From Candidatus Thorarchaeota archaeon (lineage in GTDB: Archaea > Asgardarchaeota > Heimdallarchaeia > Hodarchaeales > Hodarchaeaceae): a stretch of 9,789 nt of DNA. The notes beneath the pieces are model-generated. The model worked only from the letters and a program-made list of their open reading frames with translations. It had not been told where the DNA came from and did no database searches. Below, in pieces: positions 1 to 9,789 of the stretch (the stretch's first letter is position 1; the number at the start of each line of letters is the position of its first letter). The stretch is from the NCBI GenBank assembly GCA_048882505.1, contig JBHLRO010000043.1, positions 1 to 9,789 of the forward strand, read 5' to 3'. The position numbers were made by a program, and so were the translations under genes.

Positions 1-446
1 TGGATATTAACGAGATTAAGAATCAATTGCAGGTATGTTTCTCTTGTGGGACGTGTAGCGGATCCTGTCCCATATTCCGAGTGAATCCAGAAAAGAATCC
101 GCGAAGGTTTATACGGGCGGTATTAGACTCAAGCAATTCCGATATATCAGTGTTGGAAAACTTCGAACCTCTCTGGCTATGTACGACATGCTATGCATGC
201 GAAGACCGGTGTCCTCAAGGGATTAACATCACAACAATGCTTGTAAAACTAAAAAATATAGCTGCTAGACACGGATACGTTCCTGAGTCAGTGAAAGCGG
301 AATTAGAAACAATTATAGCAAACGGGACTACATCTCCCCCTGGTAAGAGTATTTTGATGCGCCGCAAAAAGCTCAGTCTCCCAGATCTTCCTCAACCCGA
401 TCTCCCAGCTATCCAGAAGCTGATCCATCTTACATTAGATGACTAG
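1..446 (+). CDS. hdrC: Heterodisulfide reductase subunit C-like 2x[4Fe-4S] protein (5' end at or beyond the window edge)
   Basis: Two ferredoxin-type motifs, CFSCGTCSGSCP and LWLCTTCYACEDRCPQG, lie directly upstream of an hdrB-like gene. The frame is open back to the window start (GAT at 3-5: DINEIKNQLQVC...), so the TTG at 27 is probably not the true start. The TG at 1-2 could be the end of a start codon. Confidence 0.88.
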   Translation, partial: DINEIKNQLQVCFSCGTCSGSCPIFRVNPEKNPRRFIRAVLDSSNSDISVLENFEPLWLCTTCYACEDRCPQGINITTMLVKLKNIAARHGYVPESVKAELETIIANGTTSPPGKSILMRRKKLSLPDLPQPDLPAIQKLIHLTLDD

Positions 447-458
447 AGAAGATGCCAA

Positions 459-1427
459 ATGTCAGAATCAAATGGTAGATATGCTCTCTTTCTGGGGTGT
501 ACGATACCCTATAAGCTCCCACAGTTGGAAGCGGCGACTCGTTTCGTCATGGAAAAGCTAGGGTTAGAATTCGTGGACCTTCCATTCGGATGTTGTCCCG
601 ATCCAAATGGTATTCATTCCTATAGTGAAGATACCTGGTACACGTTAGCTACGCGTAATCTGGCCCTTGCTGAAGACCAAGGACTAGATATTATTACCTT
701 GTGTAACGGCTGTTATGAAACTCTCCACTATGTAAACCAGAAACTTAAGAACGACCCAAAGAAGCTTGCAAAGATCAATAGTTTGCTTGCAGAAGTGAAT
801 CAGGAATATAAAGCAAGCATTTCTGTCATCCATCTCCATGAATTTCTCCACGAAAAGATCGGATATGATAAACTCAGTCAAATGGTTGTTAATCCTCTGG
901 CAAACTTGCGGTTATCCGTCCATTATGGCTGTCACGCATTACGACCCCAGAGTATTGGCCAACCAGAAAACGCAGAAGCACCCCAATGGTTATGGGAATT
1001 TGTAGAAAACGTCATCCAAGCGGAACCCATTCATTACGTGGATGAAACATTATGTTGCGGAGCAGGTATTCGCGAAATGGATCAAGCGGCATCATTTGAC
1101 ATCACTAAACATAAGATTGTGCAAATGGAGACAGCAGGAGCAAATGCGATCACCGTTCCTTGTCCCACGTGCTTTCTGCAATATGATGGAAGTCAGAAGC
1201 TCATTCTAAGGGATGAATCGGTGGGAACACAGATTGTGGGCACGCCAACATTCTATTTCACGGAACTACTAGCGCTCGCGATGGGGGCGGACCCAAAAGC
1301 AATAGGCATTAATTATCATCTGATGAAACCGGAACAAGGATTACTAAAATCCTCAGAATCCACCTCTGTGGAAACCTCCCCAAAAGAAATCATAACAGTA
1401 ACGACGGGATCTAATCCGAATTCATGA
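459..1427 (+). CDS. hdrB: Heterodisulfide reductase subunit B-like protein (two CCG domains)
   Basis: HdrB cysteine motifs are present in the expected order: LFLGCTIP, GCCPDP, TLCNGC, HYGCH, LCCGAG, VPCPTC. It starts 12 nt after the hdrC stop. Confidence 0.92.
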   Translation: MSESNGRYALFLGCTIPYKLPQLEAATRFVMEKLGLEFVDLPFGCCPDPNGIHSYSEDTWYTLATRNLALAEDQGLDIITLCNGCYETLHYVNQKLKNDPKKLAKINSLLAEVNQEYKASISVIHLHEFLHEKIGYDKLSQMVVNPLANLRLSVHYGCHALRPQSIGQPENAEAPQWLWEFVENVIQAEPIHYVDETLCCGAGIREMDQAASFDITKHKIVQMETAGANAITVPCPTCFLQYDGSQKLILRDESVGTQIVGTPTFYFTELLALAMGADPKAIGINYHLMKPEQGLLKSSESTSVETSPKEIITVTTGSNPNS

Positions 1428-1653
1428 GCAAAACAAAGCCTTGATATATTCTGCGATAAAACGGATATAGCAAGACCCTCTTAAATTCTCCACTTGAGAG
1501 ATGCTACCGATAGATAACTGAAGTGGGGTTGTATTATTTGTTCAGTTCTCACTTTTAAGCGATTTGATCTAGGATCATTTGCAGGAACATTAAGGATTGG
1601 CTCCAAAGGGCGAAAAGAACGAAAAGCTCCCAGAATTATCCTGAGAACAGCTA

Positions 1654-2232
1654 TTAATGTTGAATCCAATGATCCAGAGTAGTTGAATATTGATCAGAAA
1701 TGGATTCATGCGTAAAAGCCTGTCTATATTTCTTTTCTAATGCAAGTAACTCCCTCTTTCTCCACAATCCGCCTCCATAGCCCTGTAGGTCTCCAGTGCT
1801 GCTGATTACGCGGTGGCACGGAATGAGAATTCCGATGTTATTGTCTCCGTTTGCTCTTCCAACTGCTCTAACTGCTGCATCGTTCCCGATTTTTTTTGCG
1901 ATATCATTGTAACTTCTGGTTTCCCCGTATGGTATCGAAAGCAATTGAGCCCAGACGGACATCTGAAAAGGAGTTCCTCGCACGTCCAAGGGGATGGAGA
2001 ATGTGTTACGTAACCCATCGAAATACTCGTTTAGTTCTTCCTGCAGGTTCTGTAATATAGGTGAAGAACCATGGATCAGCGGCATCTTATATCGAGACTG
2101 CATCCTAGAAATGATATTGTTGAGGCTTTTGCGGTCTAAAAATTCAAGGAGACAACAGCCTTTGGATGTAACCCCTCCAATTAAATTTCCCATCCTGCTT
2201 CGGAGAATTTGCCAAGTTATTTTTTCCTTCAT
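1654..2232 (-). CDS. ogt: Methylated-DNA--protein-cysteine methyltransferase (Ogt/AdaB-type O6-alkylguanine alkyltransferase)
   Basis: Active-site motif IPCHRV (Cys139). Also GTPFQMSVW, IPYGETRSY, the arginine finger VRAVG and GYGGGLWRKRELLALE. The N-terminal domain (GCCLLEFLDR) resembles the C-terminal half of bacterial Ada proteins. Confidence 0.95.
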   Translation of the reverse strand: MKEKITWQILRSRMGNLIGGVTSKGCCLLEFLDRKSLNNIISRMQSRYKMPLIHGSSPILQNLQEELNEYFDGLRNTFSIPLDVRGTPFQMSVWAQLLSIPYGETRSYNDIAKKIGNDAAVRAVGRANGDNNIGILIPCHRVISSTGDLQGYGGGLWRKRELLALEKKYRQAFTHESISDQYSTTLDHWIQH

Positions 2233-2778
2233 TTAAATTCCTCTCGGTGAAACACCGTATTCTTTTGAAAATGCGTAGATAAAGCCGTTTACTGAGCTAA
2301 ATCCAACTTGATTCGAGACTTCTTGAACTGAATTTCCTTGTTGGAGCAATATTCTTGCATATGATAATCGAACCTTGCGATGATAAGCCATAGGACTGAT
2401 TTTATGCCTGGATTTGAAATAACGTCTGATTGTAGTAATTTCTGTCCCTGTTAATTTCTCCAATTCCCGCTCCGTAATTTTTCTTGTCTGATTGGTCCTC
2501 ATGAATGCAAGAACTCGTTTAAGCCATTTTGGCTCAACATTAGGGAAAAATTCAGATTTACACCTTTTACATCCCCTATAATTATTCGCTATCGCTTCTT
2601 CACGAGTAGCGTAGAAGGTAACGTTCTTTGGTAATGGAGATTTTGCCTTACATGACGGTAAACAATAAATTTTTGTTGTTTTCACAGCAACCCAGAATTT
2701 CCCATCATAAGTTCCGTCACAGGCTTTTGCGATCCGAAACATGTCTTCAAATGCTAAACCATTTACTTTTTTCATCAT
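2233..2778 (-). CDS. adaA: AdaA-type methylphosphotriester-DNA methyltransferase / AraC-family regulator
   Basis: Ada Zn-binding domain (DGKFWVAVKTTKIYCLPSC...YRGCKRC) with C39/C43/C70/C73, the same spacing as E. coli Ada C38/C42/C69/C72. It is followed by a full two-HTH AraC domain (...VGFSSVNGFIYAFSKEYGVSP). Its TAA abuts the ogt ATG. The start could be 2778 or 2775 (ATGATG). Confidence 0.92.
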   Translation of the reverse strand: MMKKVNGLAFEDMFRIAKACDGTYDGKFWVAVKTTKIYCLPSCKAKSPLPKNVTFYATREEAIANNYRGCKRCKSEFFPNVEPKWLKRVLAFMRTNQTRKITERELEKLTGTEITTIRRYFKSRHKISPMAYHRKVRLSYARILLQQGNSVQEVSNQVGFSSVNGFIYAFSKEYGVSPRGI

Positions 2779-2798
2779 AAACAGCCAATGAATTAATG

Positions 2799-2812
2799 TT
2801 TATAAATTTTTC
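2799..2812 (-). promoter_or_regulatory. Archaeal-type BRE-TATA promoter for adaA-ogt, probably leaderless
   Basis: The minus strand reads GAAAAA-TTTATAAA. The TATA box ends 20 nt before the ATG at 2778, which puts the predicted start site at about the start codon. Confidence 0.65.
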
Positions 2813-3206
2813 AATCCTATTCAGGCTGAGGCCTATCAAATTTCGGGCAGGGAAATTTTACATCTCATATTTCTGATTTCAAATTTAGTCCTCTTTTGGA
2901 ACAGTTAATAAAAAACATATAGTTCATAAAAAGGGTATGTATAACTATTAATGATCTTAAAGAGCTTCTAAACCCTGACTGAATATTATCTTTGTTTTAA
3001 CAGATAAAAGACGCCTTAAGATTTCTCAAGTTGTCCTACATAGTCAGGATTATTAAAACAACAATGTATGATGTCCAACTGAAAAACATATGGAAATCTA
3101 GCAAAAAGCCTTTTAGCTCCGATAAAGCGTAGGAATAGTCTCAAGAAAAGATCAAGGTGAGAAGTAATGATAAATGAGTTGTAAAATGATGATTTCAGGT
3201 GAAGAA

Positions 3207-3221
3207 CGAAAAGTATAATTA
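3207..3221 (+). promoter_or_regulatory. Archaeal-type BRE-TATA promoter for the larA-like gene
   Basis: CGAAAA-G-TATAATTA lies about 45 nt upstream of ATG 3264. No TTGACA-like -35 hexamer is present 17 nt upstream of the TATAAT (that position reads GATTTC). Confidence 0.55.
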
Positions 3222-3252
3222 GAACAGACCGTTATTATTTTCAGAATTTGGT

Positions 3253-3257
3253 AGGTG
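3253..3257 (+). promoter_or_regulatory. Ribosome-binding site (AGGTG)
   Basis: AGGTG lies 6 nt before ATG 3264. This suggests the GTG at 3255 used by the ORF track is part of the SD sequence rather than the start codon. Confidence 0.5.
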
Positions 3258-3263
3258 TTCTCT

Positions 3264-4625
3264 ATGTCGTGGAAAGATATAACTCTCTTGTACGGGGATG
3301 AACCTATTTCTCAGTTTATACCTGCGGATTTAAATGTACACGTTTTGGAACCACCAGGGCTTCCTGAACCAGGTCGAACTTTCACTGACCTTGAAACGCG
3401 ATTTGAGGATATTATCGCTAATCCTGTCGATTCCAAAGCTCTTGAAGAGCTTGTAAAAACTCGGGAGCGATCCAGAGTCATGATTCTGGTAGATGATGCA
3501 ACTCGACCAAATAAACATACCAAAATTCTACTTCCGCTACTTTTTAAGAAATTGATGGAGGATTACAAAGTAAAAAAGGATGATATCAGATTATTGATCG
3601 CTAGTGGATCGCATAGCCCTCCCGCTGATGATTTATTAGAGAATAAGATCCTTGGACCAACAATTTATGCCGCATGGAAAGATCATGTCATGATTCACAA
3701 ACAGGCTGAAAATTGTCGCAATTTAGGGATATCAACCTTAGGAACCCCGATTTGGGTAAACATAGATGTTCTAGAATCAGGATTAATAATAGCGGTGACA
3801 GACAGTGAGTATCATTACTTCGCTGGTGTAGCAGGCACCGTCAAGCAATTTTTTCCAGGGTGTGCAGGTAAGGAGACAATCGCTCGTAATCATCCTCAGA
3901 TGTTTGATAAGGTTCAAGGATTTAAACCTGAATGCCGTCTCGGCAATACCGCAGGAAATCCAGTCATTCAAGACATGATCCAGATGGCGCAGCTTACTAA
4001 AAAAATGGTTCCAGTCTTCTGCATCGATGCCGTGATGAGCGGCGAGGAGATTGTGATGTTGGATGCAGGAGATATTAATTCTCTGCATGAATTACGCCGA
4101 GAAGCGCTAAAACCCCTCCGGGTGGTAGAAGTCGACAGGCCAGCAGATTTGGTGATCGTATCCACAGGTCCTCTAAGCATAAACCTATATCAAGGAGGAA
4201 AGGGGTTCCATGCTGGCTGGAATGCCGTAAAAGAAGGTGGAGATATCTTACTCTTGGCTCGTTGCGACTTAGGGCATGGTAGCCAAAACTTCTATGACAC
4301 AATGCGGGAAATAAATGGAATGGGATTAGATGCCGCACTTTCTAAGGTTATTGAAACCAAGTGTAGTATTGAGACTTTCAAAATAGGCAACCAGAAGGTA
4401 GTTGATTTAATCCGGATCCTCAAAAGGGCTACATGTCATATGATCACAGAAATGGATAAAGAGCAAGTAGAGGATGTTTTTCGAATTAAGTATGTACCCA
4501 GATCAGGAGATGTCCAGACAAGCCTCCGTGCATGGATAGAAAACTTCCGAGAACAGAAAAATCGTGATCCATTGGTGTATGTGTTGCCCGACGCGGGCAA
4601 CTATATTGATGTAAAATCCAGATAG
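3264..4625 (+). CDS. larA: LarA-family nickel-pincer-dependent lactate racemase / alpha-hydroxy-acid epimerase homologue (DUF2088 domain)
   Basis: Motifs ILVDDATRP, IASGSH, EYHYFAGVAGTVKQFFPGCAG, TIARNH and NLYQGGKG match the LarA pattern (D72/R75, H108, H174/K184, H200, K298 in Lactiplantibacillus plantarum numbering). The ORF track start is 3255 (GTG); ATG 3264 is preferred. Substrate is unknown. Confidence 0.85.
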   Translation: MSWKDITLLYGDEPISQFIPADLNVHVLEPPGLPEPGRTFTDLETRFEDIIANPVDSKALEELVKTRERSRVMILVDDATRPNKHTKILLPLLFKKLMEDYKVKKDDIRLLIASGSHSPPADDLLENKILGPTIYAAWKDHVMIHKQAENCRNLGISTLGTPIWVNIDVLESGLIIAVTDSEYHYFAGVAGTVKQFFPGCAGKETIARNHPQMFDKVQGFKPECRLGNTAGNPVIQDMIQMAQLTKKMVPVFCIDAVMSGEEIVMLDAGDINSLHELRREALKPLRVVEVDRPADLVIVSTGPLSINLYQGGKGFHAGWNAVKEGGDILLLARCDLGHGSQNFYDTMREINGMGLDAALSKVIETKCSIETFKIGNQKVVDLIRILKRATCHMITEMDKEQVEDVFRIKYVPRSGDVQTSLRAWIENFREQKNRDPLVYVLPDAGNYIDVKSR

Positions 4626-4628
4626 TCA

Positions 4629-4668
4629 TTTCCCATCTTCCTTTCTTTTTTCTTTTTTCGTTCCCTTA
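4629..4668 (+). terminator. Pyrimidine/oligo-T tract, candidate archaeal-type terminator
   Basis: TTCCCATCTTCCTTTCTTTTTTCTTTTTTCGTTCCCTT directly follows the larA stop, with two T6 runs and no GC hairpin. Confidence 0.5.
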
Positions 4669-4711
4669 CATTCTTGAACAGGCATAGGAAGGGATTAATT
4701 GGAGAGCCCTT

Positions 4712-5296
4712 ATGTCCAACTTCGATATTATGTATCAAGGTACTCCGTTGTGGGATATTGGCCGACCCCAACAATTTCTCGTCGACCTAGCAAGCAAAAA
4801 CTCAATAAAAGATCCAATCTTGGATGTAGGCTGTGGTACGGGAGAAAATACATTATACCTAGCCACCCTGGGATATAACGTAATTGGTATTGATTCGGCA
4901 CCAACTGCAATCGAAAAGGCAAATCGAAAAGCGCAGAATAGGGGAATTAACGCAAATTTCAAAGTTTTCGATGTGTTTAAACTAGATCAGCTTGGAAAAC
5001 GTTTCAATACCGTGATTGACTCAGGACTCTTTCACATATTTTCAGATAGCGAAAGAATCCTTTTTACCAACCAGCTCGCAAAGGTAATTGATTCTGCAGG
5101 AAACTACTATTTCATATGTTTCAGCGAACATGAGCCAGCAGGATGGGGACCAAGACGGGTAACTCAATCGGAAATTTATTCGGTTTTTTCAGCTACGGGT
5201 GTATGGAGGGTCAGATCAATTGATGCGGCTTCTTTCGAGACTAATCGTCCTCAAGGGAAGGTAGCAGCATGGTTTGCATCCATCCTGCGTCTATAG
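4712..5296 (+). CDS. Class I SAM-dependent small-molecule methyltransferase (TPMT-like / mycobacterial Rv0560c-like)
   Basis: Motif I ILDVGCGTG, motif II VIGIDSAPTAI, RFNTVIDSGLFH, and the N-terminal WDIGRPQ signature. GGAG at 4701-4704 precedes the ATG. Confidence 0.85.
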   Translation: MSNFDIMYQGTPLWDIGRPQQFLVDLASKNSIKDPILDVGCGTGENTLYLATLGYNVIGIDSAPTAIEKANRKAQNRGINANFKVFDVFKLDQLGKRFNTVIDSGLFHIFSDSERILFTNQLAKVIDSAGNYYFICFSEHEPAGWGPRRVTQSEIYSVFSATGVWRVRSIDAASFETNRPQGKVAAWFASILRL

Positions 5297-5610
5297 GGCT
5301 AGATTGATGCAAATCAAGCTTGAAATGTACCCATAGAATCTCAATGGGAGTAATTTTTTCCCCGTTTCTGATCCATGAAGTGAATACAAGCCGAGTACGA
5401 CCCGTCACTGGACTTTCTTTTCCTGAATATTGATTTCAGGTGCCAAAAGCGACCAATGAACGGGGTAATGAAGAAAATCCAAAAGAAAACGTGTTTAGCC
5501 GAAATGGTGCTCGCTGAACGTAGTATTGTGGATTACTTGAATAATATCGGGTTCATATTGGTGATAACTACTTAGACTTTTCTCTCCACCTTAACATGAA
5601 CCCTTCTGTA

Positions 5611-5627
5611 TTAATCGTAACGATTAA
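5611..5627. repeat. Perfect 17-bp palindrome, operator-like
   Basis: TTAATCGT-A-ACGATTAA: 8-bp arms around a 1-nt centre, in the intergenic region upstream of the MFS gene. Confidence 0.7.
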
Positions 5628-5794
5628 CGTAAAATTCGGATTTATTCTCTAGACATAGTTAAAAATCATCAGTCGCTGGAGTACTAGAACTTCCTGAAAT
5701 TACTTACTCCAACTGAAACTATGATTACTTACTTAGTTGACAAAAACGTGGCTAGGTTGTAATCATTTTCACCTGCCAGTTGTGCTGAGAATTT

Positions 5795-5807
5795 CAAAGG
5801 TATATAT
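5795..5807 (+). promoter_or_regulatory. Candidate archaeal BRE-TATA promoter for the MFS gene
   Basis: CAAAGG-TATATAT ends 38 nt before the TTG start at 5846. Confidence 0.45.
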
Positions 5808-5845
5808 CCCTCCATTTCCCCCTCATTAACGTCGGACGTGGCACC

Positions 5846-7261
5846 TTGGCGACACATACGGCTACTTCGCATACAGCTAATGCCTATTTGCTTTTCTGGG
5901 CCGGTCAAGTCGTGTCCTTACTTGGTTCAAATATCGTCCAATTTGTAATCATTTGGTGGATTGTTGTAACGTATCTAAATCCAATCTACTTAGCTGTCGC
6001 CTACCTATTAGGAATTGGAGTTCAAGTAGTGTTCATGCCAATTGCTGGAGTATTCGTTGACCGATGGAATAGGAAGTGGATTCTGGGGGTCTCAGATGGA
6101 TTTCAAGCATTAGGTGCCATAGGTTTAATTGGCCTGTTTTTGTTTCGAAATATCCTCACGGGACTTCAACTGTACTGGGGAGTCGTATACGTAATCACTC
6201 TTCGTGGAATTACCGCCTCATTTCATGCACCTGCAGCTGACGCCATCATTCCGCTAATGGTGCCGCGAAGCTATCTTAATAGACTTAATGGAGTTAAATT
6301 CTTCTTTGTAGGCGCAGTGAATATACTCGGACCGGCTCTTGGGGCTATATTCTACGAACTTGCCCCAATTGAGGTTATCATCTGGGTAGATGTCGTAACA
6401 TTTCTTATGGCGATTATACCTCTGTACTTCATAATCATACCCGAACCGCCTCCTAACGGAAATCAGGTTCATGACAAGATTGGTTTTTCGGCAGTAATCC
6501 ATGAATTCCAGGAGGGTATCCACATTCTGCGATCTAACGATGGACTCCTTCCTCTGCTCCTCGTATTTACGGCCATTACCTTATTACAAATACCTATTGC
6601 TGTTCTTGGCCCCATATTCGTATATTCCACTCATTCTGGAACTGTGACTGATTTAGCTTTTGTAGTCATTCTTAGTCAGGTTGGAATGCTGATTTCAGGC
6701 GTGTTTTTGCTGGTTAAGAAAGATTGGAACAAAAAATCGACCGCTATTGTTCTTGCGTTCTATTTTCAGCTATTGGGATACTTTATTCAAGTAATTACTC
6801 CATTGGGAGTCTTTTGGTGGATGGGAATTGGAGCACTAGTTTTTGGATCTATGATTCCCATAGTAGATTCTACATTTAGGACTATACTTCAAACCACGGT
6901 TCCGCCCGATCTACAAGGACGAGTATCGGCTATTGCCGCCTCTGTGGCGGGAGCAACCTTACCTTTTGGTATGCTGGCTTCGGGGCCCCTCGCCGAAATT
7001 TTTGGAACTGTTAACCTTTTCCTCCTTGCAATATTTGCCAGTTTTATTGTAATTACGCTAGCTTGGCTCTTCACGGGGCTTAGTAATCTTGACAAGACGA
7101 TAAGCTGGGAACCAGAAGCCCCTCTTCCAACAGCAGCTGGCCATAGTCCTTCCATCAAAAGCGAGTTGAAAAGATCCATTTCCGAAATATCTGGCTCTGG
7201 TATCGGCCAGCCAATGATGGGATTTACAAAATTGGATGAAGATCTGAAAACCGGAGAATAA
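5846..7261 (+). CDS. MFS transporter, DHA3/MefA-like efflux family
   Basis: About 12 hydrophobic segments, N-terminal LLFWAGQVVSLLGS, MFS motif A GVFVDRWNRKWI, and late-loop QTTVPPDLQGRV. TTG start; the exact start is uncertain. Confidence 0.9.
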   Translation: MATHTATSHTANAYLLFWAGQVVSLLGSNIVQFVIIWWIVVTYLNPIYLAVAYLLGIGVQVVFMPIAGVFVDRWNRKWILGVSDGFQALGAIGLIGLFLFRNILTGLQLYWGVVYVITLRGITASFHAPAADAIIPLMVPRSYLNRLNGVKFFFVGAVNILGPALGAIFYELAPIEVIIWVDVVTFLMAIIPLYFIIIPEPPPNGNQVHDKIGFSAVIHEFQEGIHILRSNDGLLPLLLVFTAITLLQIPIAVLGPIFVYSTHSGTVTDLAFVVILSQVGMLISGVFLLVKKDWNKKSTAIVLAFYFQLLGYFIQVITPLGVFWWMGIGALVFGSMIPIVDSTFRTILQTTVPPDLQGRVSAIAASVAGATLPFGMLASGPLAEIFGTVNLFLLAIFASFIVITLAWLFTGLSNLDKTISWEPEAPLPTAAGHSPSIKSELKRSISEISGSGIGQPMMGFTKLDEDLKTGE

Positions 7262-7278
7262 CCAAACCGCTGGTCCTG

Positions 7279-8142
7279 TCACGCAGGAATGGCAGTCTTG
7301 GTGAAAGCGTCAGCTGCAAAAAGCGCGCTGCCATCGATATCAAGTCGGATAGCTCTTGCAATTTGCCTTACCTCTTCAGGAGATTTACCTGTGAGGTGGT
7401 TTTTGGCATTGTATTTTTGAATGATTTTTATTCCGTGTATATCTAAGGCAACCCGATTTGAACTCGCCAAGATTCTTTGTGGTTCTTCTTTTCTACCATT
7501 ACCTGGCCCCCCAGTGACGAAGACCTTACGGGCGTCCATGATACAAAGATGTGGCGAATAACCAAGATTCAAATCTGCGACCTTTTCCGGAACCCGGAAG
7601 CTCATATGCATCCGTATTCTTTGTTTTCTTTCCATTAAACCCACTGCCAGTTTCAAGGCACCAGTGAACTGGCCAATAAAATGGGTTTTACAGCAAGGTA
7701 GAAGAATAATTCTCGAATTGGGATCCAAAATCTGCCTAGGAAGTTTAACGGATTTCATATATTTGGCCCCCATTGATTTTAGATCCAGTTTTTCATATAT
7801 ATAGTCCTTTTCCGTAATAAGAGGAATATCAAGTTCCTCCAGTTTACCATTCATCCGTGAGGTGATTAACTTCCTAGTATCCACCTGTAAGGTGGAAGAT
7901 TCAATAACAGTAACGTCAGAGGTAATTTTTTTCAAAAGCATCAGAATAGTTATGAAGAAACCTAAATCAGTTGACGCTGGAAATGGATCCCCAGTATTGA
8001 AGTTTGGCTTTACAAGAACATGATCCCTAGGATTGATGAAATTTGTCAATCCACCCAAAGGATCAAGACATGATAATATCGTAGTTCTAAGAGACTGATC
8101 TGTGTGTAAAACCTCGGATACCAAGGGATTAGGAGGCGCCAT
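7279..8142 (-). CDS. DUF362-domain protein (no fused ferredoxin domain)
   Basis: Family-typical motifs HVLVKPN, VTVIES, LPCCKTH...TGALK, LCIMDA and ASSNRVALD. Confidence 0.8.
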   Translation of the reverse strand: MAPPNPLVSEVLHTDQSLRTTILSCLDPLGGLTNFINPRDHVLVKPNFNTGDPFPASTDLGFFITILMLLKKITSDVTVIESSTLQVDTRKLITSRMNGKLEELDIPLITEKDYIYEKLDLKSMGAKYMKSVKLPRQILDPNSRIILLPCCKTHFIGQFTGALKLAVGLMERKQRIRMHMSFRVPEKVADLNLGYSPHLCIMDARKVFVTGGPGNGRKEEPQRILASSNRVALDIHGIKIIQKYNAKNHLTGKSPEEVRQIARAIRLDIDGSALFAADAFTKTAIPA

Positions 8143-8519
8143 ATCAACAAGCCCTGTGTTTTATTGAACCTAACAATGACAACAAAAACATTCAGTTAAC
8201 AATTATGAGGGATAAAGATGATTTGACCTAAGATTGACTTTTTTCTAATCTCCTTATGACTGATTGCAGAATTATCCCAATATGATGTATACTGTGTCTG
8301 AAAGAGTCCCTTTATACAAGTCTTGTCATTCCCCACCTCGAGGACTCCTATATTCAGTTCCAGACTATTCTTTGGCGAAATTATTTACAGAATAATATGG
8401 TTTGGAATCGGATAAAAAAACTGGAATGAGATCGAAAATCCAGCTATGAGGAAAACGTCTTCATTAACAGATCAGGAGTTCTTCTTAACGATTGTTTAGT
8501 TTCGTGATATGATGAAAAA

Positions 8520-8540
8520 TTGTATGCATATTGTATGCAA
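8520..8540. promoter_or_regulatory. Tandem quasi-palindromic operator-like site upstream of the sdh operon
   Basis: TTGTATGCAT-A-TTGTATGCAA: a 9-bp direct repeat in which each unit is nearly palindromic, flanked by AAA and TTT, about 105 nt before ATG 8647. Confidence 0.5.
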
Positions 8541-8646
8541 TTTATCAAACAAAATCCTCATATTATTCAGCATTTATTGGAGATTTAAGTCACTACAACA
8601 ACTTTAAGATATTGTTTCTTACTAATAACACTTAATATTCGATATA

Positions 8647-9093
8647 ATGACAGGAAGTGTTTGTAATATGACTTCTGAAAGTGGAATTACCCGATTTGTA
8701 CCCAAACATGAAGCACGTTCCGCTCAATGGTGGGTTCTCCAACGTATTAGCGGGGCATTTACTTTTGTTCTGTTAGGGCTCCACATGGTTCTCAATCATT
8801 TTCTCAATCCTTTTGTTGAAGCCCAGTACCCAGATATTGTAAGGGATTATGGGATAGCGTCTTTTCGAGTTGTCCAGATTAAGATGGCGAATCCGCTTTA
8901 CTTAATCGTTTCCTTCCTCTTTGTTATTTTCTTACTGTTTCACGCCTTTAACGGTGTGAGAACAGTATGGCTTGATATAATACCAGGGGATGCATCAAGG
9001 CGATTCATTGGATGGGCTGTTGTCATTCTCATCGTGGTGCTTACTCTATTCACTTTATGGTTAAACTTTAGTGTGGCCCAGCTGCCCGGATAG
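8647..9093 (+). CDS. sdhD: Succinate dehydrogenase/fumarate reductase hydrophobic membrane anchor (SdhD-like)
   Basis: WWVLQRISG...LGLH, FRVVQIKMANP and LFHAFNGVRTVWLD; three hydrophobic segments. Alternative start ATG 8668. Confidence 0.8.
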   Translation: MTGSVCNMTSESGITRFVPKHEARSAQWWVLQRISGAFTFVLLGLHMVLNHFLNPFVEAQYPDIVRDYGIASFRVVQIKMANPLYLIVSFLFVIFLLFHAFNGVRTVWLDIIPGDASRRFIGWAVVILIVVLTLFTLWLNFSVAQLPG

Positions 9094-9098
9094 GTGAT
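9092..9098 (+). promoter_or_regulatory. Ribosome-binding site AGGTGAT for sdhC
   Basis: It overlaps the sdhD TAG and lies 5 nt before ATG 9104. It is complementary to the 16S 3' end sequence AUCACCU. Confidence 0.65.
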
Positions 9099-9103
9099 AT
9101 TTC

Positions 9104-9613
9104 ATGACAGGAAGTACTGAAAAAAGAATTCATGATACACAAGTTGCAGGTGGGAGTAAGCCGAGGAACTTTTTGAATTGGTTTAAACCGTGGGATCAGG
9201 GGATAGGAATGTGGGCTTGGTTCATCCAAAGGATGACGGGACTTTTCCTTGTATTATATCTGTTCGCCCATTTTGGGGTCCTATCAACACTACTGATCGA
9301 TCCAACGGGTGAGCTCTTCGATACCTTGACTATAAGCATGAATACACCATTCCTCCATGGATTACCGGAAATCGGCCCTTTTCCATTGGACAAGGCCACT
9401 TCCTTCGGATTCATCGTAGATTTTGTATTGATTGGCGCAATGATCTATCATGGATTCAACGGGATCAGGGTAACTATGTTTGACTTTTATCCGGAATCCG
9501 TTCGAGCCCAGAAGCGAATTTTCTGGATTTTAACGATATTAGGCATCCTAACTTGGATAATTGCGATGCTATTAATCCTTATTGTTCCAGAAATAGTTTT
9601 ACCAGGAGGTTGA
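9104..9613 (+). CDS. sdhC: Succinate dehydrogenase cytochrome b subunit (SdhC-like)
   Basis: GMWAWFIQRMTGLFLVLYLFAH and IYHGFNGIRVTMFDF; three hydrophobic segments. Confidence 0.85.
   Translation: MTGSTEKRIHDTQVAGGSKPRNFLNWFKPWDQGIGMWAWFIQRMTGLFLVLYLFAHFGVLSTLLIDPTGELFDTLTISMNTPFLHGLPEIGPFPLDKATSFGFIVDFVLIGAMIYHGFNGIRVTMFDFYPESVRAQKRIFWILTILGILTWIIAMLLILIVPEIVLPGG
9604..9610 (+). promoter_or_regulatory. Ribosome-binding site AGGAGGT for sdhA
   Basis: It lies within the last sdhC codons, 9 nt before ATG 9620. Confidence 0.65.
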
Positions 9614-9619
9614 ACAAGA

Positions 9620-9789
9620 ATGACAAACAAAAGGCATTCGCTGCTTGTGATAGGCTCAGGACTCGCTGGAATGCGGGCTGCCGTTGCTGCGCGTGAGCAG
9701 GGTATAGATGTCGCTGTTATTTCGATTTGTATGCCGGTTCGAAGTCATTCGGTTGCGGCTCAAGGCGGGATCAATGCCCCTCTTGGAAA
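9620..9789 (+). CDS. sdhA: Succinate dehydrogenase/fumarate reductase flavoprotein subunit, N-terminus only (3'-truncated; absent from the ORF track)
   Basis: My translation is MTNKRHSLLVIGSGLAGMRAAVAAREQGIDVAVISICMPVRSHSVAAQGGINAPLG. It contains the dinucleotide-binding GxGxxG and the RSHSVAAQGG motif with the covalent-FAD His (codon 9746-9748). Confidence 0.95.
   Translation, partial: MTNKRHSLLVIGSGLAGMRAAVAAREQGIDVAVISICMPVRSHSVAAQGGINAPLG

Follow-up and report, generated by a model that had tools for sequence, protein, structure and literature searches.

An unstudied half-size relative of LarA in an Asgard archaeon is a plausible candidate for a new nickel-cofactor enzyme

A gene of the DUF362 family (PF04015) in the genome of Candidatus Thorarchaeota archaeon (assembly GCA_048882505.1) encodes an unstudied, half-size relative of lactate racemase (LarA), and it is plausible that its product is a new nickel-cofactor enzyme. 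The gene lies in the 9,789-nucleotide stretch of DNA that was analysed (contig JBHLRO010000043.1, positions 1 to 9,789), which we call the window. The Pfam DUF362 model matched the protein with E 9.8e-29 and 101.3 bits, against a gathering cut-off of 24, over model positions 1-198 of 200, and the closest homologues are labelled Heimdallarchaeota, Hodarchaeales and Promethearchaeota. Neither a signal peptide nor an Fe-S domain was seen in the 287-aa protein, and a scan for promoters and terminators stayed at chance level. The gene and its principal sites are:

7279..8142, reverse strand: DUF362 (PF04015) gene, a 287-aa ORF with the fold of the LarA N-terminal domain as its single domain
7996..8010, reverse strand: K45-P-N47-x-N49 motif, terminating the first core strand, where LarA has its D72-x-x-R75 loop
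7681..7683, reverse strand: H154, equivalent of the catalytic LarA H174, invariant (129/129 homologues)
7663..7665, reverse strand: T160, aligned with S180 of L. plantarum LarA, T or S in 130/130 homologues
7651..7653, reverse strand: K164, counterpart of LarA K184, to which the cofactor is anchored as a thioamide, in 128/130 homologues
7606..7608, reverse strand: H179, equivalent of the nickel ligand LarA H200, in 124/130 homologues
7495..7536, reverse strand: D203 ... G212-P213-x-x-G216 motif, conserved DUF362-wide, with no counterpart among LarA catalytic residues

S180 of L. plantarum LarA is presumably a phosphate contact. All three residues of the H154/K164/H179 triad are present together in 125 of 130 diverse DUF362 homologues, and an H-K-H triad is present in most members of the DUF362 clades examined. 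K45, K152, D203, G212-P213 and D234 are invariant in DUF362 and absent from LarA.

The first-pass annotation of the window had proposed a possible LarA fold for this protein after noticing that it shares an H-x6-G-x2-K...His core with the LarA encoded nearby. The core is indeed found at codons 154-179 of the DUF362 gene and at H187, K197 and H213 of LarA (3813-3893), and the strands quoted along with it, VLVKPN and VTVIESS in DUF362 and ILVDDATR and LLIASGSH in LarA, are all present. The motif alone was rejected as evidence of homology: the bare pattern H-x6-G-x2-K-x14/15-H occurs in 5 of the 2518 ORFs of the genome, with 3.35 expected after shuffling. Its significance comes from the evidence on the families, namely the HMM-HMM register, the identity of the fold and the near-invariance of the three residues.

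Direct comparison of the DUF362 protein with the window's LarA by BLASTP gave E 22 or worse. The Lar_N model (PF09861) did not match the protein at E 0.1, and only one other DUF362 protein produced a sub-threshold Lar_N match (model positions 140-195). When the PDB was searched by sequence, neither the protein nor a profile of 99 sequences retrieved a real match or a DUF362 structure, and an ESM Atlas feature search outside DUF362 clusters returned weak unnamed matches only. HMM-HMM comparison of a profile of 122 DUF362 sequences with a profile of 43 LarA sequences was significant (probability 95.7%, E 9.6e-9, 213 columns) and paired H154 with H187, K164 with K197 and H179 with H213 exactly. 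Diverse alignments were needed for this result, shallow ones (Neff <3) yielding no match. In this register, which was read from sequence profiles and not from atomic superposition, DUF362 H154/K164/H179 are the equivalents of LarA H174/K184/H200.

Structures of the LarA superfamily include L. plantarum LarA (5HUQ/6C1W), Mar2 (6D6Z/7S91), I. pallida LarA (9EIA) and GntE2 (4NAR). The best PDB matches of an AlphaFold model of the DUF362 protein (pLDDT 91) all belonged to the LarA family (VIA Z 14.7-17.5, rmsd 3.1-4.2 Å over 214-225 residues), with unrelated folds at Z <=5.4, and a Foldseek comparison with LarA-family structures gave E 9e-6. About 220 DUF362 residues align to LarA chains of 393-480 residues, and the order of strands and helices is the same in the DUF362 and LarA models. 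Fold and profiles thus bear out the LarA-fold proposal. The suspicion voiced with it, that the relationship might already be recorded, was also correct: DUF362 and DUF2088 both stand in Pfam clan CL0471, and DUF362 has been used as an outgroup for LarA, the families sharing this clan (PMC11770544). The homology is on record, the function is not. No paper that suggests or examines binding of the nickel-pincer cofactor (NPN) to DUF362 came to light, and literature searches for Npun_F2552, COG2006, COG2768, PF04015 and NPN salvage uncovered nothing functional and no DUF362 biochemistry.

In LarA the cofactor is contacted by R75, K184 and H200, the catalytic residues being D72, H108, H174 and K298 (PMC7583248); K184 is the thioamide anchor (PMC7583248, PMC11796402). 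The substrate carboxylate is held by equivalents of R75, H108, H174, Q295 and K298, and the N-terminal domain is the one that binds the cofactor, NPN (PMC11851776). The DUF362 protein retains the equivalents of H174, K184 and H200 together with T/S at the S180 position. No His equivalent to H108 is found in DUF362, where the position is variable; D72-x-x-R75 has become K45-P-N47-x-N49; and the C-terminal substrate-recognition domain (LarA_C, with Y294, Q295 and K298) is absent from the 287-aa protein, which has no PF21113 match. Because H108, D72, R75 and the C-terminal domain are missing, the protein is not a LarA-type racemase, and we do not place it in the LarA family. It has in common with the LarA superfamily (Lar_N PF09861 + LarA_C PF21113) the N-terminal fold (Z 15-17.5), the register of the triad and clan CL0471, but identity is about 10-15%, and K-P-N, KxH and D...GGPxxG are motifs of DUF362's own.

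Two known systems resemble the DUF362 pattern in part. Single-histidine LarA homologues (9Q3J, 9Q3K; PMC12611868) likewise combine an NPN-type site with one catalytic histidine, but they keep H108, have Asn in place of H174 and contain both domains, whereas in DUF362 it is H174 that is retained, H108 and the C-terminal domain being absent. NphT (PMC13524815), a single-domain protein of roughly 290 aa found by a His/Lys motif, is an NPN-dependent hydride transferase that catalyses intermolecular hydride transfer. Its aldo-keto reductase fold (TIM-barrel) is unrelated to that of DUF362 and, unlike the DUF362 gene, it is encoded beside larBCE.

Our preferred reading, which we advance tentatively as quite possibly but by no means surely correct, is that the DUF362 protein holds NPN, made by the cell or scavenged, and acts as a one-base hydride-transfer enzyme. 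It would not be expected to racemise lactate-like acids, because the second base and the 2-hydroxy-acid carboxylate site (H108, R75, Y294, Q295, K298) are missing. If NPN is held, the single base would fit a one-directional or intermolecular hydride transfer, with NphT and the single-histidine LarA homologues as precedents; the enzyme could then be a dehydrogenase, a hydride transferase or an epimerase. An electron sink would fit the ferredoxin fusions found elsewhere in DUF362, of which the window's protein has none. NPN would be supplied in this genome by larB, larC and larE encoded elsewhere, and carriers without larBCE would have to scavenge it. In this proposal we infer the cofactor, the type of reaction and the scavenging, as well as the roles that K45, K152, R175 and T160 may play. 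Pointing to NPN are the equivalents of K184 and H200, which in LarA bind the cofactor, and a fold that is the NPN-binding domain of LarA. Orphan larBCE sets accompanied by DUF362 in genomes without LarA, intact LarA persisting in genomes without larBCE, the association of DUF362 with larC at family level and the DUF362 gene beside the single Patescibacteria larC also favour it. Against it, the clade of the window's gene shows no link to NPN synthesis and has no conserved neighbour. For this clade, use of NPN is neither supported by context nor refuted.

The protein is a regular member of DUF362/PF04015, a family that includes Tat-exported, ferredoxin-fused and UbiA-linked clades, and shares the H-K-H triad with them. 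It belongs to a short cytoplasmic clade characterized by KPNFNTxDPxPAST, by L/I rather than N after K164 and by the lack of an Fe-S domain; in contrast to other DUF362 clades, this one has no conserved neighbours and no tie to larC. Against the NCBIfam family Npun_F2552 the protein scores 44 bits, the cut-off being 500.

Of 80 genomes carrying the window's clade, 16 yielded larC, distributed as 0/43 CPR-like, 0/15 Bathyarchaeia, 7/7 Asgard and 9/15 others, many of the genomes being incomplete MAGs. A complete 689-kb Nealsonbacteria chromosome lacks larB, larC and larE and encodes a 44%-identical DUF362 protein in which the triad is complete. Among 201 Patescibacteria genomes, DUF362 is present in 31, larC in 1 and larA in 0. 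In Bathyarchaeia, larC occurs in 0/17 carriers versus 46/121 (38%) of the class sample, a comparison in which related genomes are not independent. A different picture emerged from 151 near-complete genomes of the phylum of an Ignavibacteria genome, where DUF362 is found in 15/17 larC-positive versus 14/134 larC-negative genomes. A DUF362 subtype of ~375 aa is present in 15 of these 151, all larC-positive, kin again not being independent; the subtype was read from five sequences and the remainder assigned by length and score. Co-occurrence with larBCE, put forward at first pass as a way to examine the shared-cofactor idea, gives a mixed picture: it is not seen for the window's clade, in which none of 80 loci is linked either, it is seen for the ~375-aa clade (15/15), and LarA itself lacks it in 21/86 genomes. 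As an NPN candidate, this subtype is stronger than the window's gene. In two loci checked it adjoins a UbiA gene, and it possibly acts on a lipid-linked sugar. Two CPR copies of the same larC-tracking clade reside in genomes without larC. In a third clade, of 305 aa, with Tat signals in many members, the triad is kept in >=95% complete genomes that lack larB, larC and larE, and 10 of 17 members are in genomes without larC.

The significance of missing larBCE was assessed with LarA itself as a control. In the phylum to which a Desulfitobacteriaceae genome belongs, larC is missing from 21 of 86 larA-positive genomes (>=95% complete). Five larC-negative larA genomes that were tested, G495 (L210, L211), G526, G587, G514 and G606 (L212), lack larB and larE as well; in G495, ten larA matches are found on a 2.9-Mb contig. 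These LarA copies have D72, R75, H108, H174, K184 and H200 intact. Five Bathyarchaeia carriers of the window's clade (L205-L209) are similar in having no larB or larC but an intact larA (5/5), which is probably just the base rate, because larA in these carriers sits in a conserved housekeeping block. We found no paper on LarA in genomes without larB, larC and larE. In view of the LarA control, the argument that no larC means no NPN was rejected as decisive. Since intact LarA occurs without larBCE, the absence of larBCE does not exclude the use of NPN; uptake or scavenging of NPN, or another route of synthesis, is implied for the larBCE-less LarA genomes, and an external supply of the cofactor looks real. 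A distribution independent of larBCE had been named beforehand as speaking against NPN in DUF362. It is what the window's clade displays, but the same LarA control weakens its force.

A FastTree run suggested transfer of DUF362 from CPR to Asgard, which is not established. In an IQ-TREE analysis, the Asgard DUF362 sequences form a long-branched clade inside a group made up mainly of CPR members (support 90/99). In this tree the Hodarchaeales/Loki-type copies (L005, L011-L015) are such a long-branched clade among mostly Patescibacteria sequences, and the copies from Thorarchaeota and Bathyarchaeia fall elsewhere. Transfer of the gene is possible.

The larA gene of the window and the two genes that separate it from the DUF362 gene are:

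3255..4625, forward strand: LarA-family gene (Lar_N + LarA_C), canonical, with D81, R84, H120, H187, K197, H213 and K316 intact
4712-5296, forward strand: SAM methyltransferase, between larA and the DUF362 gene
5846-7261, forward strand: MFS transporter gene, between larA and the DUF362 gene and convergent with the latter

The best NCBIfam match of this LarA is malate racemase, with a score below all NCBIfam LarA cut-offs. Where L. plantarum LarA has S180, Ala is invariant in the subfamily of this protein (A193, 3831-3833). Ordinary neighbours in the window are hdrC-hdrB, the DNA-repair genes ada and ogt as a pair, and genes for two membrane subunits of succinate dehydrogenase (3-1427, 1654-2778, 8647-9613). 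In a relative (L201), an hdrA-like/FlpD fusion lies upstream of hdrC-hdrB.

The distance of about 2.7 kb between larA and the DUF362 gene (a gap of 2654 bp) had been taken as a hint of a shared pathway, and DUF362 might accordingly be a dedicated partner of this larA. For a single genome the chance that one of 8 DUF362 genes would be this near the only larA is ~1.4%, and one close relative, with a DUF362 protein 88% identical to this one, has the same gene order. However, it was not seen beyond that relative, the two genes are on opposite strands with the methyltransferase and the MFS gene between them, and a scan of many windows is expected to meet 1% events. No larA or larC was found in flanks of up to 10 kb of 80 related loci, some of these flanks ending at contig ends. 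In a same-genus genome, larA and the DUF362 orthologue are on separate contigs, and in two complete Asgard chromosomes the DUF362 gene is separated from larA and larC by ~1.8 Mb and ~1.3 Mb, respectively (CP070695.1), or by ~0.5 Mb and ~0.2 Mb (CP070760.1), contig and record coordinates being taken as equal. No conserved neighbour was identified for the window's clade, its synteny being lineage-specific only. A dedicated partnership is thus largely refuted and very improbable; larA appears to be a chance neighbour sharing at most a cofactor pool with the DUF362 gene.

Two other alternatives concern the pocket itself. The main one, to which we assign a doubtful yet substantial probability, is that DUF362 is a LarA-fold enzyme using the same pocket for another cofactor or as a plain metal site: a simpler pyridine nucleotide, or a metal centre made of H154, H179, D203 or D234, possibly with K164 in modified form. 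In that case both families would have inherited the triad from their common ancestor, NPN being used by LarA and some DUF362 clades only. This would account for a clade that is intact in ~60 genomes in which no larC was found, one of them complete, and in a phylum with 0/201 larA, that is depleted rather than enriched in larC-positive Bathyarchaeia, and whose family has invariants foreign to LarA (K45, K152, D203, G212-P213, D234); Bacteroides thetaiotaomicron, too, has DUF362 without larC. The equivalents of K184 and H200, however, stand at LarA spacing in all clades examined, canonical LarA is equally orphan (21/86), and even the larC-tracking clade occurs in two CPR genomes lacking larC. 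NAD(P)(H) has no known user in the LarA family (PMC13524815). The loss of substrate residues with retention of cofactor residues could also mean that the protein is a non-catalytic carrier, store or salvage factor that hands NPN to client enzymes, most useful where cells cannot make it, as in the Bathyarchaeia carriers with larA and no larB or larC. We consider this unlikely: the CPR carriers have no larA client (0/201), the Bathyarchaeia larA probably reflects the base rate, and the invariant H154 and the D203/GP motif suggest catalysis.

Binding of NPN by DUF362 would mean a new class of NPN enzymes and cofactor scavenging in parasites; if DUF362 does not bind NPN, it would reveal a pre-pincer function of the LarA fold. 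In ~15% of surveyed genomes NPN is made with no LarA present, and according to the same paper most cyanobacteria have no identified NPN client (PMC11796402). Both Synechococcus elongatus and Haloferax volcanii have DUF362, larC, and larB and larE matches, with no Lar_N match, a pattern that provides a lead to the cyanobacterial client. A broader proposition, possible but on the doubtful side, is that the DUF362 proteins make up a large family of nickel-pincer enzymes with a single domain, which has gone unrecognised and explains part of the orphan larBCE sets (cyanobacteria, haloarchaea), the window's clade running in Patescibacteria and Bathyarchaeia on NPN scavenged from other cells, which would make NPN an exchanged cofactor. 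New here is the finding that the larBCE link depends on the clade, is absent in the window's clade and is often absent for LarA too. The window's gene is a weaker entry point than the DUF362 genes clustered with larBCE.

The genome under study contains eight DUF362 genes, a single larA, larC-larB on contig C21 and larE on contig C1. The presence of all three of larB, larC and larE is uninformative here, since 7/7 Asgard carriers have larC. One paralogue (C22:52644-53789; L007, L195) belongs to the ~375-aa larC-tracking clade. Two others are unusual for the genome: in the 1218-aa product of C19:23546-27202 the DUF362 domain is N-terminal, and the product of C5:79112-80737, a 541-aa protein bearing a Tat signal, has Gly where H179 would be. 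The same-genus orthologue of the window's gene (G058:C106:4863-5666, 59% identity) has one TGA stop within the matched stretch. The ~375-aa subtype, to which L125-L127, L129, L130, L157 and L158 belong as well, adjoins a UbiA prenyltransferase gene or genes of glycosyltransferase type. The only larC among the 201 Patescibacteria genomes is divergent to a 532-aa DUF362 gene (L199, G369:C7, 6294-9947); it adjoins a larE-like ORF, so called from a sequence motif only, and nucleotide-sugar genes for an NAD-dependent epimerase and a UDP-sugar dehydrogenase are nearby.
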